A stretch of DNA of 59,242 bases, filler included, from Bipalium vagum (taxonomy: Eukaryota): NCBI GenBank assembly GCA_037834085.1. It is 3 parts of 3 records of this genome, joined end to end, with 100 filler letters (N's around TTAATTAATTAA, not from the genome) between each part and the next. Parts side by side here need not be neighbours in the genome. Positions count along the whole stretch, not along the records: positions 38,388 to 59,242 come from JBBMKC010245242.1; 2 more parts are not named here. One strand, written 5' to 3'. Below are positions 23,398 through 53,086 of the stretch, piece after piece. A model generated the notes under the pieces. The model worked only from the letters and a program-made list of their open reading frames with translations, searched no databases and was not told the origin of the DNA. The translations under genes were made by a program, and so were the position numbers. Every line of letters starts with the position of its first letter. Position 1 is the stretch's first letter.

Positions 23398-25147
23398 TCA
23401 TATATAAAAATTTAAGTTTTTAAGTTTGTTTGTAAGTTTCAAGACGGCTAGTAAAGTGTGAATCTTCTAGAAATTGAAATCGGTATTTGTACCCATTCGA
23501 TTTGATAGAACAAATTCTTCGGGATTTCCCATTTTCTTAATTTATATTATAGAGGTTTTGAAATTTTTAGTTGTTAAATTTGTAAATTTAGATGCGATCT
23601 GAAAAAAGAGCATTTAAAGAAATCTAACATTTTTCCAAATCAATGTAAAGTTTGATTGTGAAAGTTTAACATTTCAATTCAATATTAATAAATAACCTCA
23701 GATTATAAATTTATTTTTCATAATCAGTTATCAAAATTAGTTTAAACATATTGAAAAATTTTTAATAAATTGTGTTTTGTTGCTATTTCCTTTAAAACTA
23801 GTCTGTCATTATCCAATGATTATTATGGATATAAAAAATTAAAATTATGATTACGCTACTAATTTAATCAATTAGGTTCATTATGTTAACTTGTCTGTTG
23901 ACGCTTTTATGAAATTAAATAGGATGGCCTGTTAGGTTTAATTAGTAAATTTTATATAGATAATTCAAATAGTTAAGATGATGAAGGAAACTCTTTACTT
24001 CATTCTGCTGTAAAAAATTTTAAACCTATAACCTTTTCAAACACGAGAGATACCAAAGAAGCTGTGAATTCAGAGAATAAGCAAGGAAAGACTACTTTAT
24101 TAGGTGCAATCATTATTTTTATCAAAAATCATTTCATATTTACCAGAATGGCAATTGTGATCTTAATTCGATTTGAGACCGTTTTAATGGAAATCGATCA
24201 TATTTCAAAATTACAGTAAAGTTTGGTTGAAATTTTAACATTTCATTTCAATATTAATATATAGGGTGGCGCATTTAAAAAGTTCGAAAGTAATGATTGA
24301 TAACTTCATTCCAATGCATGCATATTTGTTTTAATGTTTCATTTTGTTCTAAGTACAGTGTGGAAATTTAAATCATTATAATTATGGATCTAGAAATCAA
24401 AATTAAAATAATTAAATTGTTTTATGAATGTATGGTGTGTAGTATCGTCTAAGTGTGTCATTGGTCATTATTTCTTCGAAATTCAAGGCAAAAGTGCAAA
24501 TGTCACTGTCGAGAGTTATTTGGAGATGTTACAACAGTTTTTTGTGCCAGAATTGCGTCGGCGTCGTATATCTATTCGTTCGACATGGTTTCAACAAGAT
24601 AGAGCAACACCGCACATCAAAAAGATCACCAAGAAATACTTGAGGACGATTTTCTCTAATCGCATCCTCTCACGGAATGCCAATTAAAGATGGCCCACCC
24701 CAGATCACCAGACCTGATAGACCCAGATTTCTTATTGCAAGGACAAGATCAATCAAACCAACCCGCAAAATATCAGACTTAAAAGATGCTATCAGATATG
24801 CAATCCGCAAGATTCCAAAAGAAATATTCACATCAGTAATAATTACCTTTTCGGCAATATGCAGAACTTGCATAAATCATCTCAATGGAGGCCATCTTAC
24901 CAATATTATACTCAAATAGCTAAATATTGCATAAATCTCCATATTTTAATGATCATGTTTAATAAATAAAAATAAAATACTCATGTTTTTTTCCAAAGCT
25001 TTGATTTTTTTACTTTCGAACGTTTTAAATGCGCCACCCTATATAACCTCAAATTATTACTTCCTTTTCTGTAAATTTTTATTTCTATTGATCAATCATA
25101 AGTAAATTATATTATTGAAATACCAATGCACGCTATGTATAAACTAA
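23398..25147 (+). mobile_element. Candidate non-autonomous Helitron containing a nested Tc1/mariner element
   Basis: A|TCATATATAAAAA...GTTTGTTTGT 5' end. 3' end ...ATGCACGCTATGTATAAACTAA|T fits CTRR. Internal ~60-bp direct duplication. The subterminal hairpin is weak. Confidence 0.5.
24262..25041 (+). mobile_element. Internally deleted DD41D-like (rosa/Visitor-type) Tc1/mariner element
   Basis: TIRs TAGGGTGGCGCATTTAAAA...TTCGAAAGTA at both ends with TA TSD. Transposase remnants VWCVVSSKCVIGHYFFE, WFQQDRATPH, RILSRNAN, PRSPDL, NGGHL. The HTH and first-D region are deleted. Confidence 0.92.
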
Positions 25148-28216: not shown

Positions 28217-28849
28217 TTGTGTTGGTGCAAATGAAATTGCCGTTTTCGACATATAATTTTAAAACGATACGACATACACGTAACAAAATTTTATCAATTA
28301 ATATAACAATCATTCGATCCGTAAAATTTTTGTTTGTCTGTCAATTCATGTGATTCCAATTAATCAATTTTTTACACCTTACCTATTTCTTTTAAATAGC
28401 GCACGACTTTTGTATGATTAGCATGTAGATCTGCAAGTTCACGCACGGTTTTCTGTGGGTCAGCTTCGATTGTAGCTTTCTGTTGATAGTTATCCGGTAC
28501 TATTGGCCGAGTTACGTGCTTCTCATCTAACATACTTTCATCTTCGCTATAGAATATAGAAAACAACCATAGAACTGTTCTTTCATTAGTTGTACTTGTG
28601 CCAAAAGCAGCATCAATTTTAGAAGCTGTCTCGCCTACTCTAAGGCCGTTTTTAAATTCGTATGATAATATTTTGATTTTTCATCTTGAAAAAGTAATTT
28701 AAACTAAATTTAAAACCATTACCATATTGAACAAAATATAAGCTTCAAATTGATATAATGATTAATATTTATAAATTAATACATTTACAACAATGGTGAG
28801 GCATAATTAAAATGGCAATTTCTTTAAACAAACTTTCCGGATCACCCAA
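28217..28849 (-). mobile_element. Internally deleted mariner
   Basis: TA-TTGTGTTGGTGCAAATGAAATTGCCG TIR. Minus-strand YEFKNGLRVGETASKIDAAFG...EADPQKTVRELA...YLKEIGKV. Other end ...CACCCAA-TA. Confidence 0.85.
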
Positions 28850-38387: not shown

Positions 38388-38673
38388 TGAATGTATAATA
38401 TAATTTTTATTCGAATAAAAACTAAGAGTAGTTATTTCTTTATTTAAGTAGTCTCGTTATTTTTTTGTTATTTTTTGTTATTTATTTGTGTCACACCATG
38501 TATATTTTTACATCATATCTCATGACAGCATAACCATTTGTATTAATTGGAAATGAAGGAGTTGGTTGAATATCTAGTTTTTTTTTTCATTAAACTTCTT
38601 AAATCTTTCATCAATATTGAATTCTGGGTCGGCATTATTATAAATAAATTTGCATAAACCAAATACTCATATA

Positions 38674-40140
38674 CCAGGTGTTCAAGTTAAAAGTTCATAA
38701 ATAAAAGCTTAATATTTATTATGCTGTAAAGTTTTATTGAAAATAAATTTATTTGGTCGAATAACCTTTATTGCGGATTTAGTAAATCCGGCTTTTTATA
38801 TAAAATTATGTTGTTTAAATGCATAAATAATGACAATAAATAAATGTACGTTTAAAATTATATTTTATTTTTATACATGCCTTACATATTATCAAAATCG
38901 GATAAAATTAAGCTGGTAGAGCTAATTTTTAAAATTGAGAGTTTCGCTGAAACTCAGAGAAAATTTTCAACCGAAAAAATATAAAACGAAAGAGTGATAC
39001 GACTTCAGTACAGCAAATAAGAAAAATTATTTTTAAATTCCAGCAAACTGGTTGCATTAATAAAGATGACAATGTGCGATTTCCTAGAGCTTCAGAAGAG
39101 AAACGAAAGGATATTGATACTGTTTAATACCAGATGAAAGCAGAGGGAACTTCTACGAGGATAAGGAAACTGAGTTCTGCTTCAGGTTCCTCTATTGGAT
39201 TAGTTCACACGTATCTCAGACGTGAATTGAAATTATTTCCCTATAAAGTCACAATTGGGCAGTCTCTATCAGACAAACATAAGGCAAATCGTTATGCCTT
39301 TTGCAAACGGATGATGTCAAATATATCCAAGGATGATACATTTTTATCCCGAATTGTATGGAGTGACATTCAATCTCAATGGATGAGTGAACAGACAAAA
39401 TCTTCGATTTTGGGGGACGCAAAAGCCCAATAATGTGGTTGAATACTCAGCAAAGGTCAACGTATTCATTGCGATGTCTTCTTCCTTTCTTATTGAACCT
39501 TATTTCTTTGAGGATAATGGCAATAGTCAGACTATAAATTCGGAACGATATTTGGATATGCTTATTCACTCTCTTATTCCGAGTCTCAAATCAATGCCGA
39601 GATTTAACCGTTTAATTTTCCAACAAGATGGTGCTGCTCCCCATATTGCCAAACAAGCAAGAGTATTCTTGTAAAACAATTTTGGTTCTGGAAAAAAAAT
39701 TTCAAGAGGATTTCCTAACGAATGGTCTGCCCAAAGCCCTGATCTAATACTCTTGGATTTCTGGTTATGGTCATTCTTGAAAGAAAAAGTTTATCCAGGT
39801 TGCAATCGCCCAAATAGTCGTGAAATACTGAAAAAACGTATCATCCAAGCTGTACAGATTGTGACAGAAATTAACCTTCAAGAAGCCGTGGAAAATGTCA
39901 CTCATTGGCTGGAAGCATGCTTAGAAAATGAGGGTGGACACTTTGAATAAAAATATGATTTATGTACATATCATATTTGTAACTATTTTGATAAAATACA
40001 ACAAATCTTGTAATTCAACTTAGTTAAAAAAATAAATCCGCATATTTGATCTTTATGAAAATGTAAAATTTTCATGAATTCATTACCTGTAGGAAGTTTG
40101 AGCAATCTTTTATTTATGAACTTTTAACTTGAACACCCGG
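38674..40140 (+). mobile_element. Full-length DD41D-like (rosa/Visitor) Tc1/mariner transposon with a disrupted transposase
   Basis: 34-bp TIRs CC(A/G)GGTGTTCAAGTTAAAAGTTCATAAATAAAAG with 1 mismatch and TA TSD. ORF remnants from ATG ~38877: LKLFPYKV, IVWSD, NRQNLRFWG, FQQDGAAPH, WSAQSPDLILLDFWLW, EGGHFE. Confidence 0.95.
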
Positions 40141-40193
40141 TATTTATCCAGATATTTAACAAAGCTCACACGAAATAGAAAGTTATATTACTA

Positions 40194-43289: not shown

Positions 43290-43757
43290 TACATAATAGA
43301 TCCCGGCTTTTGATCACGAATGTTTCGCTTGGGCGTCGATGTAGAAGTATGGCCGAGCTCTCTCCACGATCTTTTTCCTTAGGATTACTGTAGTACATCC
43401 ATTTTTAATCGCCCGTTACGACACAATGCAAGAAAGATTTTCGTCTTTGACGTTGAAGCAATTGTTTACAGATACACAAATGATGTTCTACGTCTCTCGG
43501 TCTCAATTCGTATGGCATCCATCTTCATAGTTTCTGAATCATTCTCATGAATTGTAAATGTTTGCCATGGTAGAACGATCGACTCTCAATGATATTGACA
43601 TTTGGTCTTGTGTTTGACATGAAACTTGGCTGAGCAAAGTCTTCAATTCTTCATGATCAAACTTTTTCGGGCGCATAAATCGATCATCGTCCTTGATGTT
43701 GAAATCATCATTTTTAAACCGATGAAACCATTCAAAACATTGTGCTTTTGACACCAT
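43290..43757 (-). mobile_element. Mariner (Mos1/mauritiana-like) internal fragment
   Basis: CFEWFHRFKNDDFNIKDDDR..RPKKFDHEELKTLL, WMPYELRPRDVE, FLHCVVTGD*KWMYYSNP. Confidence 0.9.
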
Positions 43758-44740
43758 TTTTCCATTATTACTTTTTTGATTGTTTCCTCATCTTGTTTCA
43801 TTATCGACGTTAATGAAATATAGTTGCTATACTGATCTATAATAGCTAGTATGTATCGTTTTTTTCGAAAAGTTTCTTTTAACGGAGCACAAATATCAAT
43901 ATATATATTTTCAAATGGCTCATCTGCTGATAATTTCATTGTATCTTCTTTCGTTTTTGTTGTGACTACTTTATGTGTTGACAGATTTCACATATTTTTA
44001 TTACTTCGGCTGCTGTCTCTCTCAGGTTTTTCATATCGTACAAATCAGTTGTATACTTAATAACTTTTTCGCTCCCAGCATGTGTTCGAGATCTGTGAAT
44101 CTCTTCCACTAACATTCGGCTCTTGATTTTTGGAATCCATATATTTCCTTCGAACGTTTTGACCAGACCATCTTCCAAGCGGAAATAAGATGTAATTCTC
44201 TTTTCAATATCTTCTTTAATCTGATTGATTTCATTTTCATTATTCTGCTATTTATATACTGCCTCTTCGTTTATTGTATTTATTGTCCTGATCTTCCTTT
44301 TTTCTGTTTTTGGCTCTTCATGAATCATCATACACTGAGATCATGTACCGCAAGTTTTTCTCAATAAAATGTCTGCATTCGTGTGGTCAATTCCTTTTCT
44401 GTATTTAAGCTCTATATCTAGATTGCTGAGATAGTTCATCCACGTCTGAAATTGTGGTGCTATTGGCTTTGTCGTTTTGAACATGAATTCTATTGCCTTG
44501 TGATGGGTTCTCACCAGATTTTTTTCCATACAAGTAATGCTTCAAGTGGTTACAGAAGTAATAGATTGCTAACAGTTCCTTTCTTGTGATGCAGTATTTT
44601 TTTCATGACTGTTCATTGCATGTGATTCGTACGCGATCACTCTCTCTTTTCCATTATCGTCTGTCTGTGACAACACTGCTCCAATCGCTTAAAAACTGGT
44701 GTCAGTGTCTAATATAAACGTTCTTTTAATGTCTGGAATG
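43758..44740 (-). mobile_element. Gypsy/Ty3 LTR retrotransposon pol fragment (RNase H and integrase)
   Basis: FILDTDTSF*AIGAVLSQ, YCITRKELLA, YRKGIDHTNADIL, HHCC zinc finger (IH...HAG...CEICQ), integrase core PFENIYIDICAPL...YILAIIDQYS. Confidence 0.93.
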
Positions 44741-45006
44741 TATTTATATTATATTATTATATTTTTTTGTATTTTTAATTATAGAAAATCTATGTTACTA
44801 TTTTTAGAATTCATCTTAAAATTATTTACTATAAATTTATTTATAGAAATATTTATTGTAAAAATTATTTATAGTAACTTTATGTAACTGACCAATTTTT
44901 TTCCCAATATTTTATAAATTAATCATCAAAATGATTATCTTTTTAATTAATTATAAATATAATAATGATCTTTTATATTTTATATTATTTTTACTATAAT
45001 TTTATA

Positions 45007-45557
45007 CTCCCTCCGTTCGGAAATATGGTATACATTTGCGAAAAAATAAAATAAACCAAAAAATGTACATGACAAGTATATTATATTAACTTTATTTGAA
45101 ACATTCTAATTGAATAAGAATTATTTTTTTCACTCGAAATTTGATTTGGCTTTAACGGTTAGCGTGGAAACTAGAAACGCAGTAGCAATTTCATTGATTG
45201 CACCGTGTTTTAGCTTAATCTCCTTCATCTGTTGTAATAATTTTTCTAATATACCTTGACGTTGTTCTTTGGTTAATGGTTTATATTTGGACTCCCTTCT
45301 TTCTAAGTTTAACAAATTTCCTTCAGAATTTTCCATATTCGTCTTGCAGCGGTATTAATTTTATTTGTCTCAAGAAACACTGATGTTTGAGCGTTAAGTT
45401 TTTAACTAAGAATGATATTGCTTACGTCAAATATTTCAGGTTATATTGTCATGAGTATTTACTATAACAATGTAATGACAGTTGCCAATTTATTTTTATA
45501 ATCACGATAATCTACGATTTTTGTTGAAATGTTTACCATAATTCCGGACGGAGGGAG
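45007..45557 (-). mobile_element. Stowaway/DD39D (plant-mariner, Guest)-type deleted element
   Basis: 31-bp TIRs CTCCCTCCGTTCGGAAATATGGTATACATTT / CTCCCTCCGTCCGGAATTATGGTAAACATTT with TA TSD. Internal ORF 45130-45336 LTKEQRQGILEKLL...KLKHGAINEIATAFLVSTLTV resembles the N-terminal HTH of DD39D transposases. Confidence 0.85.
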
Positions 45558-45774
45558 TATTTCATATTTTATTTTATATTTTAAACAGATAGAAAGAAAA
45601 ATTAATTAAACTCTGGGTTTTAACTCTACATAAAAATAAAAATTATATTTACATAAAATTCTATTTGAAAATAACACAAAAACAAATATATAAAAGAACA
45701 TAAAAAACACTAAAACGCTATAATGTTTTTCAGAGTAAAGAATAATCACTATATTTTCATCTATTGTTATTTTG

Positions 45775-46486
45775 TAGAGAATTTGGGATCGGGCCTGGAA
45801 GTCTCCACAACTCTTTCAATTCTTGGAAGGCTACATATTAATTCGGTCCATATTAATTTTTCATTGTTCTTCCCACACAATTGTTCTAACACTCTTGACT
45901 TTTTTGCATACCCATTGATAAAATTGAAAGCTTCTTAAATTTTTTACGCATTTTGGCCTCTCGAAGGTTCTGATTACCTCAATTTTCGCTGGGTCGGTCT
46001 TGATTCCTTGTTTGTCAATTAGATGTCCTAGAAATTTGACTTCTGCTCTTAGGAGATGGCATTTCTCTGAATTCACTCTAAGTCCTGCTTCTTTTATCCT
46101 CTTTAGCACTTCATTTAATACGGCGTAATGATGTTCTATATCCTTTGTGTAAATCATAATATCATCTAAATAGACCATCGTATTTTTCAAATTTCTTAAA
46201 ACCTTTGTCATTAACTCTTGAAAAGTTCCCGGAGCAGCGGCTATACCAAAAGGCATTCTTGTGAAGCAAAATTGTCCTTCTTTTGTCGAAAAACCTGTTT
46301 TTCTTGTGAATCCGTCATCAATTCAACCTGGTAGTTTGCATTACCCAAGTCAATCGTGTGAAAATATTTAGCTTCTTCTAATCTATTCAGTAGATTCTCT
46401 ATATTTAGAATCGGAAAAGCCTGACGCTCAGTTTTATGAAGTCCAGACATAATCTGACATCTTTTCTTTCTTTTTTCCAAACGCAA
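45775..46486 (-). mobile_element. Gypsy/Ty3 reverse transcriptase fragment
   Basis: AFPILNIENLL, YFHTIDLGNANYQV, MPFGIAAAPGTFQ, YLDDIMIY, GLRVNSEKC, VKFLGH. Frameshifted. Confidence 0.95.
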
Positions 46487-48052
46487 ATTAGAAGCTTTTA
46501 TATTATTTGATGATGAAAATATAAATGTCGAGATTTCGATTGGATTCTTTATAAATTAAAAGAAGATGAAAATAAGAACAAGGATTTTAAAACCAGAAAA
46601 CAATTATGTTTTTAAAATAAATTTCTAAAAGAATTGCGATTAAAATTACATTTTTTATTTTTACAATTTTTAAATAGAATTTTTTATAACATACAAAGAG
46701 AACATTTACAAGCAAAATAAATATAAATCAAGTAATTTTTTATGGAACAAAAAAAATTAATGAAAAGAATCAAAGATGAGAAATCTATAAAAAATATGAA
46801 TTATTTATCAAGACATTGTGAAGAAAGAAATTTGATAAAAGAAACAAAACAAAATTTACAATTATTTAATGTTCTTAATAAACCAATTTTATTTCTTTGA
46901 TTTTAGAGAAACAGAATTTGATTTTTTAAAAATTTGTTTGTTTATTCAAGATATAATAAATTGTAAGAGTTCAAGTTAATAAATAACATTATCCTTTAAA
47001 TTCACTTCAATTTAAAGAGAGTAAAAATAATGGAACTTAATTAAATTATGTAAAAGATTGTAAATATTTAAATACAAATCCACAATTAAGTTTGTTAGAA
47101 TTTCAAAATTTATATTTTATATGTTGTCTTGATTTAGTAGATCTACTTGAAAATTTATCTTTAAATAGAACTACGATAACTTAACATATTTTAAAAGAAA
47201 AACTTTTATAGGAAAAATAAATGTTGTTTTATTATAGGAACAGTTTATAGAATTAAAAATAAAAGAAATAAAATGTTTAATATTGAAACTAAAACGAAAC
47301 TTGTATAAATTATAGATAATTAGAATTTAAGATATTATTTATTAATTCTTTCACAATATTCATCTTAATAAAAATTGACTAATGTTATAATGAATCACCA
47401 TATCAATATAAAGATAAATTTTATAATAATGAAAATAATATTAATGGTATTCCAGAAGAATCAGATTTAAAATTTTTACATATAATCAGAAATAATATAA
47501 AAATTAGGAAATTGAAATTCACCATTACATTTCTTTTGAATATAATAGTCTTATTGTTTTAATCTTTTGTTGAAGCTTCTAGAAATTATCTTTATTTTCA
47601 TTTCCTTTTAGTTTATCAGGTCTCCATCCAAATATTACTCCATTATTATTTTCATTATCAAACATTAAAATATTACTTATTGAATTTGAGGTTCCCAAAT
47701 TTTCTATTGATTTTACTCCTGTGATTTTAATTTTACAATTTTATTTGACAATAAATTTGAAAATAAATTATTCTGCAAAATTATATTTATTATTATTGTC
47801 TTTTAATTCTATTTCAAAAACCAATAAAGTCTCCATTAAATTAAAATCATTTCTGCGTGTAATTAATAAAATGCTACACTCATAACTTTAGAGATTAAAT
47901 GAATTGTTAATGTAAAATGATTAATGCAGCAGTTTGTTTACCATTTTTTATTTACAAAATCAAAGAGAACAATCACACATTGACAAATTATACTTCATCA
48001 TGACAAAATAAGTTCTCATACGAACATTCATTTCACAGCCACCACAAATGTA

Positions 48053-49283
48053 TTAATTTGTAAAGAAATTAATGGGGGTTTTTATGACTTTATTCTTGCC
48101 TTTTAAATTGTTAAATGAAATTTTGTTTAATTAATATAAGTTTGTTTATATCTTAAAGATAAATATTTTATAAAGGTAAGTCAACAAAAATTTCTAATAA
48201 AGAAAAATTATATAAAATCTTTTAGGCATTGGTAAACGAGATGAACTACATCCAAATCAGAATAGTGTTTCTTTATGAATACAAAATGAGTGGTAATTCT
48301 GGACAAGCCGCTCGAAATCTGAACCGTATATTTTGAGAAGGTATGACTAATCAACGTAGCGCTTAACGCTGGTTTCAGAGATTTAAGAATGGAGATAAAT
48401 ATATATAATATGAAGATGGTCTTTGACGAAAAATGTTCATCTAAAATAAATATTTGAACTCACTGGTTGAGAGTAATCCACAAACAAATGTTCGAGAGCT
48501 TAGGTATTTCAGGTATGACTGTTTCCAATCATCTGCGAGAAATAATAGAAAAGTCCAAAAAACACAACAAATGGGTTCCACACGATTTGACAGAAAAGCA
48601 AAAATTTTGTCGTTTTGAGATGTTGTCAGTACTTCTTTTGCTCAAATAAAAATGAACCTTTCTTTTGTGACATCTGATGAGAAATGATTCCAATACGACA
48701 ACCGCCGACGTTCTCAGCAGCGGTTAGATCGACATGAACCTCCTAAGCCTAAGTTGCACCGACGTAAGGTTTTGGTGCCTGTTTGGTGATGTTCCACTGA
48801 TTTGATCCATTTTAAATTCGTGAAATGTGGTTAAAAAATTATCGCCAAAATATGTTGTGTGGAAAAATTGAAATGTATATAACCAGCCTTGGTCAATAGA
48901 AAAGGCCTATTGCTTCTCCAAGGTAACACCAGACCACAAGTCGCGCAATCTATCATACAAAAATTGAACCAGCTTGATATTGAAATTCTGCCTTACCAAA
49001 CCTACTTACTGGACCTCTCGCCTACTGATTATTATTTCTTCAAACATTTGGAAAAGTTCTTCAGCTAGCGAACCTATCACAATGATGATGTGTCATTAAA
49101 GCCTTTGAAGATTTCGTCACATCTAGAACTCCAGATTTTTATCGAATCTGGATAAATAAGCTTGTGACTCGTTGGGAGAAATGTGTACAGTGTAATGGTT
49201 TTGATCAATAAAATTTTTTAAAGCTGTGATTTGTTCATATGAAGTTCACTGTTAAAAACCACCATTTATTTCTTTACACCTAA
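48053..49283 (+). mobile_element. Full-length decayed mariner (DD34D)
   Basis: TIR pair TTAATTTGTAAAGAAATTAATGGGGGTTTT / AAAACCACCATTTATTTCTTTACACCTAA with TA flanks. Motifs LYEYK, RWFQRFKNGD, WVPHDL, VTSDEK, LQGNTRP, DLSPTDYYFF, LVTRWEKCV. Confidence 0.92.
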
Positions 49284-50796: not shown

Positions 50797-51283
50797 TTAA
50801 ACAATATCATCATGATTATTGTTCATATTAGTATTGTTACTCAAAGTATTATTTCCAACCAGAGTTCGAGAAGTTTTCATATCTGAATCTAAGGAAGATC
50901 TCAAAATCCAAGCTGTGTTTTTTAAATCATCTGATTCATTTAATCTTTTGTGACGATAAATGTGCCAGAGTTCAGTTGTCAAATCTGTAACAATAACTTC
51001 TCCGATATTTGAACCGATCAGTTTTAGGATAAAAACAACATCCGGCTTGAGATAATGGAGAACAAATTGTCTACTTGCACTAAGATCAGTGTCTTTAAGC
51101 ACTCCACTGATGCGAAGTTGTTGCCTGATAAATCTGATTCTTCTTCTTAAAGATAATATTTGACTTGACCATGAAAGAATGCTCATAAAATTAATCACTC
51201 CCAGCAATACGTGCCAAAACCACAGAAAAATGAATATCTTTTCCAAAAACATGTTCATTGGCAAAACACATTGCAGGGTATAC
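50797..51283 (-). CDS. Innexin (gap-junction protein), terminal coding exon
   Basis: YTLQCVLPMNMFLEKIFIFLWFW is the second-extracellular-loop/TM4 signature. FVLHYLKPDVVFILKLIGSN.G.VIV.DL..ELW is the conserved C-terminal block. Acceptor tctatttttcattttag|G at 51284/51283, TAA at 50797, AATAAA on the minus strand at 50731-50736. Confidence 0.95.
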
Positions 51284-51540
51284 CTAAAATGAAAAATAGA
51301 CATTTCTTTTTAAAAATCGTAAAAAATTATGAAATCTAATTAAAAATAAATTGCAAAGAAAATTAAAATCATTTTTATAAATTCAAATGTTTTTATGGTT
51401 TATTACTAGGTCGTCCAAAATGTTTACGGAGCATCCCAGCATTACGACATTGATGTACTAAAAATTTTAAAAGAAACATTTGGACCGCACAAGATCATTC
51501 TGCATATTCATTTTTCAAAGTTGTCAAATTAAGATTAATA

Positions 51541-52848
51541 ACGGGTGGCCAATAAAGAATGATAAATTGTTTAAATACATTATTTTTAAACTAAAAAATT
51601 TAAATTTGAATTATTAATTGATTTAATTTATGCCAAGGTTTTTAATATCTTGCAAAATAAACATACGTTATTTTTAGCAATATTTTCTTTTAGATAATGA
51701 CGTATGAGAGCTGTGTAAGAAATTTGATAAAAACTCATTATGAAAATGGGAAAACAACGGAAGAAATTTATGAACCTGTAGCAAAAACGGTACCAAAGTT
51801 CTCTATTTATAGATGGACTAAACTAATAAAAGAGGGAAAATCATTACTTGCTCGAAATTCTCCTGGACGTCCAAGAACTGTAAGAACGAAAAACTTTATC
51901 AAAAATCTTAATGGAAACCTTACAACAAACAAAAAAAGAAATCAGCTAGAAAGTTAAATTTGGATTTCAAATGTTCAAGATGAACGATTGGAAATATTAT
52001 ACATAATGACTTGGGATTTAAGTGCTACAGGAAAATAAAAGTTCCCTTTCTATCTGAGTCCCAAATCAATAGACGAAAGACGTGCTCATCTTGGTTAAGA
52101 AAAAGATTTAGTAAACAGGCAGTGAACAAAATTATGTTTAGTGATGAAAAATCTTTTGATGCAGATGGTAAGTTTAATCCACACAACAACGTCGTTTATG
52201 CTGGCTCTAGAAAAGATGCAAATTTAAAAGGTTGACTTTTTTCAAAGAGAAAATATCCTTTGAAAGTGATGGTAGGGGTTGGACTGACATATCAGGGTCC
52301 GACGAAACCTATATTCTTACCGACAAAAACATCTTTTGATACAAGATTTTATATATCAAATGTACTTTCAATCGTTGCAAAATATGGAAGGGATCGCATT
52401 GGAAGCGATTTCATATATCAGCAGGATGGTGCTAGCTGTCACAGAAGCAAAGAAACAATCGCGGCATTCAAAAAGACTGGTATTTCAAAAATAGCTCCAA
52501 ATCATTGACCACCAAATTCACCAGATCTTAGTCTTCTTGATTATTTATTTTGGGATGAAGTATCAACGAGACTGAAAACAAAAAATTGAAAATCGTACAA
52601 AACTGATTGAAAAAATTAAAGAAACAGTTGCAGAAATTCCATTAAATATGATTCGTCAAGCCATCGATTCCTTTCGACAAAGAGTTTTGACCATAGACAG
52701 GCACAAAGGAGGTTTAATAATTAACTGTTTTAATTAAATAAATTTTGATTTTATTATTTATTAAATACTTTTAATTGAGTTAATTTAACATTATGCTGTC
52801 TATGCCAAGCGTCATTCAAAGAATTATCATTCTTTATTGGCCACCCGT
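51541..52848 (+). mobile_element. Full-length DD37D (maT) transposon with a disrupted transposase, inside the innexin intron
   Basis: Perfect 25-bp TIRs ACGGGTGGCCAATAAAGAATGATAA with TA TSD. Motifs SPGRPRT, MFSDEKSF, YQQDGASCH, *PPNSPDLSLLDY. 37 codons counted between the second and third D. Confidence 0.96.
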
Positions 52849-53086
52849 TAGCGCTTAAACTACACTACAGATAAAAGACACCATTATTTTTAAATATTTC
52901 TGTGTTAAAAATAATAAAAAAACGGTTGGAGTCATACTTGTACATCTTAACATGTGATATTTAACTTAAAAAATTTTTTTTACTTATTAAAATATTTATT
53001 AATCTATTTTGTTTTTATTTTATCATTTTTATATAAATTTATTTTTGCTTTTATTTTATTATTATTCTTACATTAATATTTTATTA

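Follow-up and report, generated by a model that had tools for sequence, protein, structure and literature searches.

The window (the whole stretch of 59,242 nucleotides of Bipalium vagum DNA that was analysed, filler included) carries a 551-bp deletion derivative of a DD39D mariner transposon in what is a flatworm genome. The element belongs to a non-plant branch of its family, and this branch has likely passed horizontally between a flatworm lineage and Hamiltosporidium, either directly or by way of other hosts. Hamiltosporidium species are microsporidian parasites of water fleas (Daphnia). Horizontal transfer is the best reading because high identity, patchiness and position in the tree point to it together. 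The single copy in the window is an ordinary dead element; its interest lies in the sharing between flatworm and microsporidian, an event of a known kind.

The element spans positions 45007-45557 and is intact at both ends. Its closest intact relative is P0174, a complete 445-amino-acid transposase that is a member of the cluster of one relative of the element's open reading frame (ORF); P0174, like P0002 and P0003 among the other relatives, may come from a species other than the window's host. The features of the element and its insertion site are as follows.

45007..45557, minus strand (transposase sense): whole non-autonomous DD39D (Guest/PlantMar) mariner deletion derivative
45005..45006, unstranded: TA target-site duplication, left copy
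45558..45559, unstranded: TA target-site duplication, right copy
45527..45557, minus strand: 5′ terminal inverted repeat, 31 bp, starting CTCCCTCCGT
45007..45037, plus strand: 3′ terminal inverted repeat, 31 bp, with three mismatches to the 5′ repeat
45154..45336, minus strand: transposase codons 1-61 with the first helix-turn-helix (HTH; DUF7769), 54 of 61 residues identical to P0174; PF24964, E 6e-8
45130..45153, minus strand: last seven transposase codons and stop, in frame with codon 61; 7 of 7 residues as in the C-termini of P0174 and P0050
44745..45004, unstranded: AT-rich repeat, left part, 12% GC, target of the element insertion; outer border approximate
45560..45775, unstranded: AT-rich repeat, right part, 18% GC; outer border approximate

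The first-pass annotation had described 31-bp inverted repeats with three mismatches and a TA duplication, and both end alignment and shuffling bear this out. The mismatches fall at positions 11, 17 and 25 of the 31 bp. When the 2 kb around the element were block-shuffled 50 times, the best 31-bp inverted pair carried 6-9 mismatches, compared with three in the element. When one mismatch is allowed, the terminal 10-mer CTCCCTCCGT occurs in the window at the two ends of the element only, which gives a count of one element within the window; taken alone this test is weak, because 3 of 100 shuffles also gave two hits. An empty site is present in sequencing run X1, in which a single contig, with a short side of 22 bases, joins 45004 to 45558 of the flanking repeat and skips 553 bp (551 + 2). 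Another joint in X1, from 45062 to 45634, was rejected as an artefact of AT-rich repeats.

The repeat that received the element is about 0.5 kb long and unclassified; terminal inverted repeats were looked for in it and none were found. It interrupts a decayed Ty3/gypsy pol between the reverse transcriptase and RNase H parts. The pol remnant itself extends over window positions 43300-46555 (minus strand) as reverse transcriptase, RNase H and integrase pieces with stops and frameshifts, and its split at ~44745-45775 by the mariner-bearing AT-rich repeat makes a three-level nest. As the element is nested in host repeats, it does not lie on a stray contig.

Residence in an animal genome, as first annotated, is evident from the genes in the same window, namely an innexin exon (Pfam E 5e-26) and a rhodopsin-type G-protein-coupled receptor (GPCR). 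The receptor has 16 relatives (best match 73%), and all 13 of those with species names are Platyhelminthes, parasitic flatworms at 33-38% identity. These matches, the innexin and a GC content of about 27% point to a flatworm as the host, and we infer that it is a free-living planarian. The receptor is a single ORF at window positions 4351-5388 (minus strand), and every named member of its family comes from a flatworm; the innexin exon, at 50800-51293 (minus strand), is the last of its gene.

Several other transposon remnants lie in the window. A decayed Tc1/mariner element at 38671-40143 has 40-bp inverted repeats (95%) and a broken transposase weakly like P0003 (E 0.002). The element at 24258-25045, 788 bp long, carries transposase-like fragments within 36-bp inverted repeats (97%) and is probably another internally deleted mariner-type element. 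A 1.3-kb element at 51539-52850, whose 36-bp inverted repeats match at 89% and whose Tc1/mariner-like transposase is broken, sits just upstream of the innexin exon and probably in an innexin intron. Mos1-type (DD34D) mariner-like remnants occupy 48200-49270 and 28375-28680, the second with a Pfam HTH_48 match.

Judged by sequence, the earlier assignment to the DD39D family is right. The catalytic triad of P0174 is D185/D309/D349, a spacing of 39 residues between the last two, and P0003 also has D309 and D349; the window copy itself has no catalytic domain. The spacing check recommended by the first-pass annotation gave 39 residues in full-length relatives, and in 65 of the 71 proteins for which both motifs were located, within a 162-sequence set that includes fragments and GPCRs. 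Relatives of the ORF in the protein search were not pogo, Tc1 or DD34D transposases. Plant and diatom proteins match the transposase over its whole length at E < 1e-110, it shares the DUF7769 domain with plant mariner transposases, and the nearest Atlas clusters consist of oomycete and streptophyte DUF7769 proteins. A TA-flanked CTCCC end motif was found, with at most one mismatch, in 41 of 80 related metagenome loci.

A search of solved structures by sequence gave chance hits only, so a fold search was needed. The AlphaFold model of P0174 (pLDDT 88, from a 93-sequence alignment) has its best structural match in the Mos1 transposase (E 2e-12), followed by Sleeping Beauty and SETMAR, and P0174 is thus predicted to combine a paired HTH DNA-binding domain with an RNase H-like DDD core.

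An origin of the element in plants, whether it was transferred recently or reached the assembly as a contaminant, has next to no probability. Such an origin might be suggested by the ends, which agree with the primer sequence for rice Stowaway/Osmar14 given in PMC3660474, and by descriptions of the family as mainly or only a plant one. Against it, P0174 is only 48-49% identical to three plant proteins (and 47% to a diatom protein), plant proteins group apart in the tree described below, and the AT-rich repeat that received the element is embedded in a gypsy remnant located between flatworm genes. The original judgement that plant contamination was unlikely therefore holds.

The 68-amino-acid ORF with its own ATG was recovered at 45130-45336 on the minus strand. 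It had been taken for the N-terminal HTH of a DD39D transposase, and the DUF7769 match and the helices predicted in the P0174 model (23-35, 46-54 and 58-73 for the first HTH) agree with this for residues 1-61. The ORF is more than an N-terminal fragment, however, because its last seven residues are those of the transposase C-terminus, and of predicted helix 3 the peptide would retain just four residues, up to residue 61. The third helix of the HTH fold is the recognition helix. The composition of the ORF, residues 1-61 plus the last seven of the 445 in P0174, also substantiates the proposal that the element is a deletion derivative. A single internal deletion has removed about 1,131 bp (377 codons) at the ORF junction, which gives an inferred parent of ~1.68 kb (about 1,682 bp); 207 bp of the element derive from the transposase gene and 221 bp upstream of it are kept. 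Two X1 contigs span the deletion junction, one side covering only 20 bases. By its sequence, the ORF is a by-product in which both transposase ends have been fused in frame, and the copy shows no sign of a host function.

Sequence words from the element are shared with 20 sequencing runs from 12 studies under nine organism labels. Four of these runs (X1, X2, X3 and X8) were compared by contig, and word shares in runs X4-X7 and X9-X20 were not used as evidence. Run X1 shares the AT-rich flanking repeat, at high depth, and pieces of the gypsy remnant, and appears to be the host itself or a close relative. There is almost none of the flanking repeat in X2, X3 and X8, which match the innexin exon over 62 bases only, at ~89%; poor cover of this exon in all four runs is a gap in the contigs and proves nothing alone. 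These three runs, which could be a single species entered under more than one label and apparently represent another innexin-bearing animal, carry the element at 97-99% identity without the flanks found in the window. There are four differences in 332 bases in X2, 12 differences and 12 gaps over 45018-45560 in X3, and three differences in 242 mostly non-coding bases in X8, whose contig has another flank. The deletion junction in the three runs lies at most about 15 bases from that in the window.

Comparison with these copies bears on the state of the ORF. At least six differences separate it from X2, X3 and X8, and five of the six listed are amino-acid changing; at those five, the three runs keep the residue of P0174 and the window copy departs from it. 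In the X2, X3 and X8 copies 11 bases are missing at the junction and the frame is broken. Because of the changes away from P0174 and these frameshifted copies, the 68-amino-acid peptide is probably non-functional, and the ORF is likely decaying neutrally. A peptide kept by selection, acting perhaps as a repressor through binding of the element ends or poisoning of transposase dimers, would fit a frame open from native ATG to native stop, the retained 221 bp upstream and the fact that six element-bearing runs are recorded as RNA. We regard selection as very improbable nonetheless, given the truncation of the predicted recognition helix (58-73), the predominance of amino-acid-changing differences and the frameshifts in three other runs.

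A check of the protein relatives of the ORF, as the first-pass annotation had advised, returned DUF7769 and DD39D proteins of which the closest named ones come from Hamiltosporidium. Nine longer relatives of the ORF were found, two at 90% and 79% identity and seven at 68-85%, and these seven, which are all of the species-named ones, are Hamiltosporidium proteins. P0174 and 14 Hamiltosporidium proteins are 70-92% identical per ungapped segment. The longest of them, P0164 from H. tvaerminnensis, has 87% identity to P0174 over 389 residues, and C-terminal pieces reach 90-92%.

Two trees were built from the best 120 of 2,082 protein matches with close extras. Both are quick searches, rooted at the midpoint and supported by SH-aLRT values alone, in which the window row occupies just 13-14% of the columns. 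In the 127-row tree, one clade (SH-aLRT 99) unites the window ORF with two near-copies and seven Hamiltosporidium rows and is nested in a ladder of relatives at 55-77% identity; a separate branch (SH-aLRT 97) holds the 21 named plant rows. A 28-row tree that includes P0174 gave the same clade with SH-aLRT 100 and a Hamiltosporidium subclade with 87. In both trees the flatworm ORF and the microsporidian copies make up one short-branched clade. The phylogeny that had been called for thus places a separate non-plant DD39D branch in a flatworm, in one clade with microsporidian sequences (99-100). The characterization of the element as plant-type and mostly of plants stands as to the family, but its nearest named relatives are microsporidian and its plant relatives distant. 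Two DD39D transposases, P0065 and P0144, appear under cyanobacterial and archaeal metagenome bins; they lie among eukaryote-type rows and probably reflect binning contamination.

Since Hamiltosporidium species are intracellular parasites sequenced out of infected hosts, the hits in their assemblies might be DNA of Daphnia or another animal, in which case the element would be shared from animal to animal with microsporidia uninvolved; several ENA records also cluster with the Hamiltosporidium hits. This is unlikely, in our estimation. TcMar-Stowaway elements are recorded in both Hamiltosporidium species and in all four of their assemblies, at 0.6-1.4% of transposable element (TE) content (PMC7313128, supplement 5). 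The copies lie on contigs of up to 39.7 kb and form a subclade of their own (support 87-92), and no named Daphnia protein occurs among the nine ORF relatives or the best 120 of the 2,082 matches.

Descent of an old opisthokont DD39D lineage, vertical in both flatworms and microsporidia and lost elsewhere, is extremely improbable. The ladder of many relatives at 55-77% identity does indicate that a large non-plant DD39D radiation exists. Microsporidian proteins evolve fast, and a protein identity of 87-92% in decayed copies is unexpected over the animal-fungal split. In addition, the other 43 of the 47 assemblies in the microsporidian set have a TcMar-Stowaway value of zero or no TEs (PMC7313128, supplement 5), and even Schmidtea species differ from one another by 0.3-0.6 substitutions per fourfold site, according to the accessible text of PMC11410931.

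We therefore return to horizontal transfer, which is likely because the identity appears far too high for the animal-microsporidian split: at the protein level, P0174 shares 87-92% with the best Hamiltosporidium copies. The patchy distribution (4 of 47 assemblies in the published table) and a tree that conflicts with the host relationships point the same way. The first-pass annotation had offered either horizontal transfer or an overlooked animal lineage. A separate non-plant DD39D branch does occur in a flatworm, and transfer is likely, with Hamiltosporidium as the partner and not plants.

The window copy may have arisen as follows. A parent of ~1.68 kb would have lost ~1.13 kb of coding DNA, probably by abortive gap repair after excision. 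The shortened copy would have kept both inverted repeats, so that a full-length transposase supplied in trans could cut it out, and it would then have been pasted into a TA of the AT-rich repeat inside the Ty3/gypsy remnant. Mobilization in trans has a precedent in Stowaway elements, which Osmar14 moves in yeast, as described in the accessible part of PMC3660474. The 68-amino-acid ORF would be an accident of a deletion that happened to be in frame (one chance in three) and would now be decaying.

A more extended history, to which we give slightly less than an even chance, is that a non-plant DD39D subfamily circulates among freshwater flatworms and microsporidia, has crossed between a planarian lineage and Hamiltosporidium, and has given rise to a 0.55-kb derivative that moved recently between planarian species. 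The non-coding parts of the element have 97-99% DNA identity in other runs while a host gene gives no alignment at 85%. If X2, X3 and X8 represent another planarian species, this would hint at recent movement of the short derivative between species. Such circulation, if true, would break the one-way switch to plants that is claimed for PlantMar in the accessible text of PMC7325037, and would suggest microsporidia as vectors into planarians.

Viral contigs contained no protein relative of the transposase and no match to the terminal inverted repeat pattern. JGI metagenome contigs gave 80 loci, none above 60% identity, and parent element DNA was not recovered from them; several complete DD39D elements of ~2.67 kb, with both TA-flanked ends and 42-45% GC, are present among these loci (L035-L042). 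A literature search, screened mostly at title level and with the main DD39D survey outside its scope, found no report of a flatworm DD39D element shared with Hamiltosporidium. That survey, by Wang et al. in 2021, is said to describe a few GT elements in animals and cross-kingdom transfer, and may list a planarian copy. The accessible portions of PMC9777934, PMC8533490, PMC10379824, PMC12400950, PMC5751038, PMC10542269 and two bioRxiv preprints hold nothing on this pairing, and the same is true of what was accessible in the three supplementary files of PMC11410931. Known already, from the accessible text of the reports, are DD39D elements in bees (PMC8472432) and an exchange of Merlin elements between planarian and microsporidian (PMC4202319). 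What the present case offers is a separate DD39D branch in a flatworm, with ~90% protein identity to a microsporidian genus and with intact relatives in public data, and a concrete and datable test of whether microsporidian parasites carry transposons between freshwater animals.

Among known systems, the element shares with the DD39D/Guest (GT)/PlantMar family (Soymar1, Osmar and Ppmar type) short inverted repeats that start with CTCCC, a TA duplication, DUF7769 and, in its intact relative, the DD39D triad. It differs in its flatworm host, in being non-autonomous and in belonging to a branch separate from the plant elements. In its accessible text, PMC7325037 restricts PlantMar to plants and a few oomycetes, reached by a one-way host switch, and states a length of 2-6 kb; the element departs from both, with a flatworm host and an inferred parent of ~1.68 kb, and as far as that text goes this mismatch reflects the sampling of the survey rather than a limit of the family.

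With plant Stowaway miniature elements (MITEs) it has in common the terminal motif, the TA target and a short length, and both would be mobilized in trans by a DD39D transposase. The size limit of Stowaway MITEs is about 600 bp, and at 551 bp, with its ends and TA duplication, the element behaves like one. The definition does not fully fit, since a Stowaway has no coding remnant or clear autonomous link and the window element keeps both ends of its transposase gene; rice Stowaways, in contrast, are described in the accessible part of PMC3660474 as orphan families that bear little resemblance to autonomous elements.

DD39D elements are less unexpected in animals than the first-pass annotation implied. 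The DD39D/GT element of the stingless bee Lepidotrigona, as presented in the accessible text of PMC8472432, likewise starts with CTCCC and is without an intact transposase; it differs in its insect host and its 2,381 bp, against 551 bp in the flatworm. TcMar-Stowaway is also listed for another bee in the accessible part of PMC7268684.

The Hamiltosporidium TcMar-Stowaway elements (TBU08947.1, TBU12259.1 and TBU00161.1) are of the same subfamily and clade as the window element, at 87-92% to P0174 in their best-preserved stretches. They differ in having a microsporidian host, in being broken or partial in all 14 proteins compared, and in forming their own subclade, and the accessible text of their source papers draws no link to animals. 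The closest precedent for the pairing is the exchange of Merlin7 and Merlin10 between Schmidtea mediterranea and Anncaliia algerae, reported in the accessible text of PMC4202319, where planarians are said not to be known as microsporidian hosts. There, too, a DNA transposon is common to a flatworm and a microsporidian, but the superfamily is Merlin and the microsporidian genus a different one; the DD39D case would thus add a second transposon superfamily to the traffic between planarians and microsporidia.
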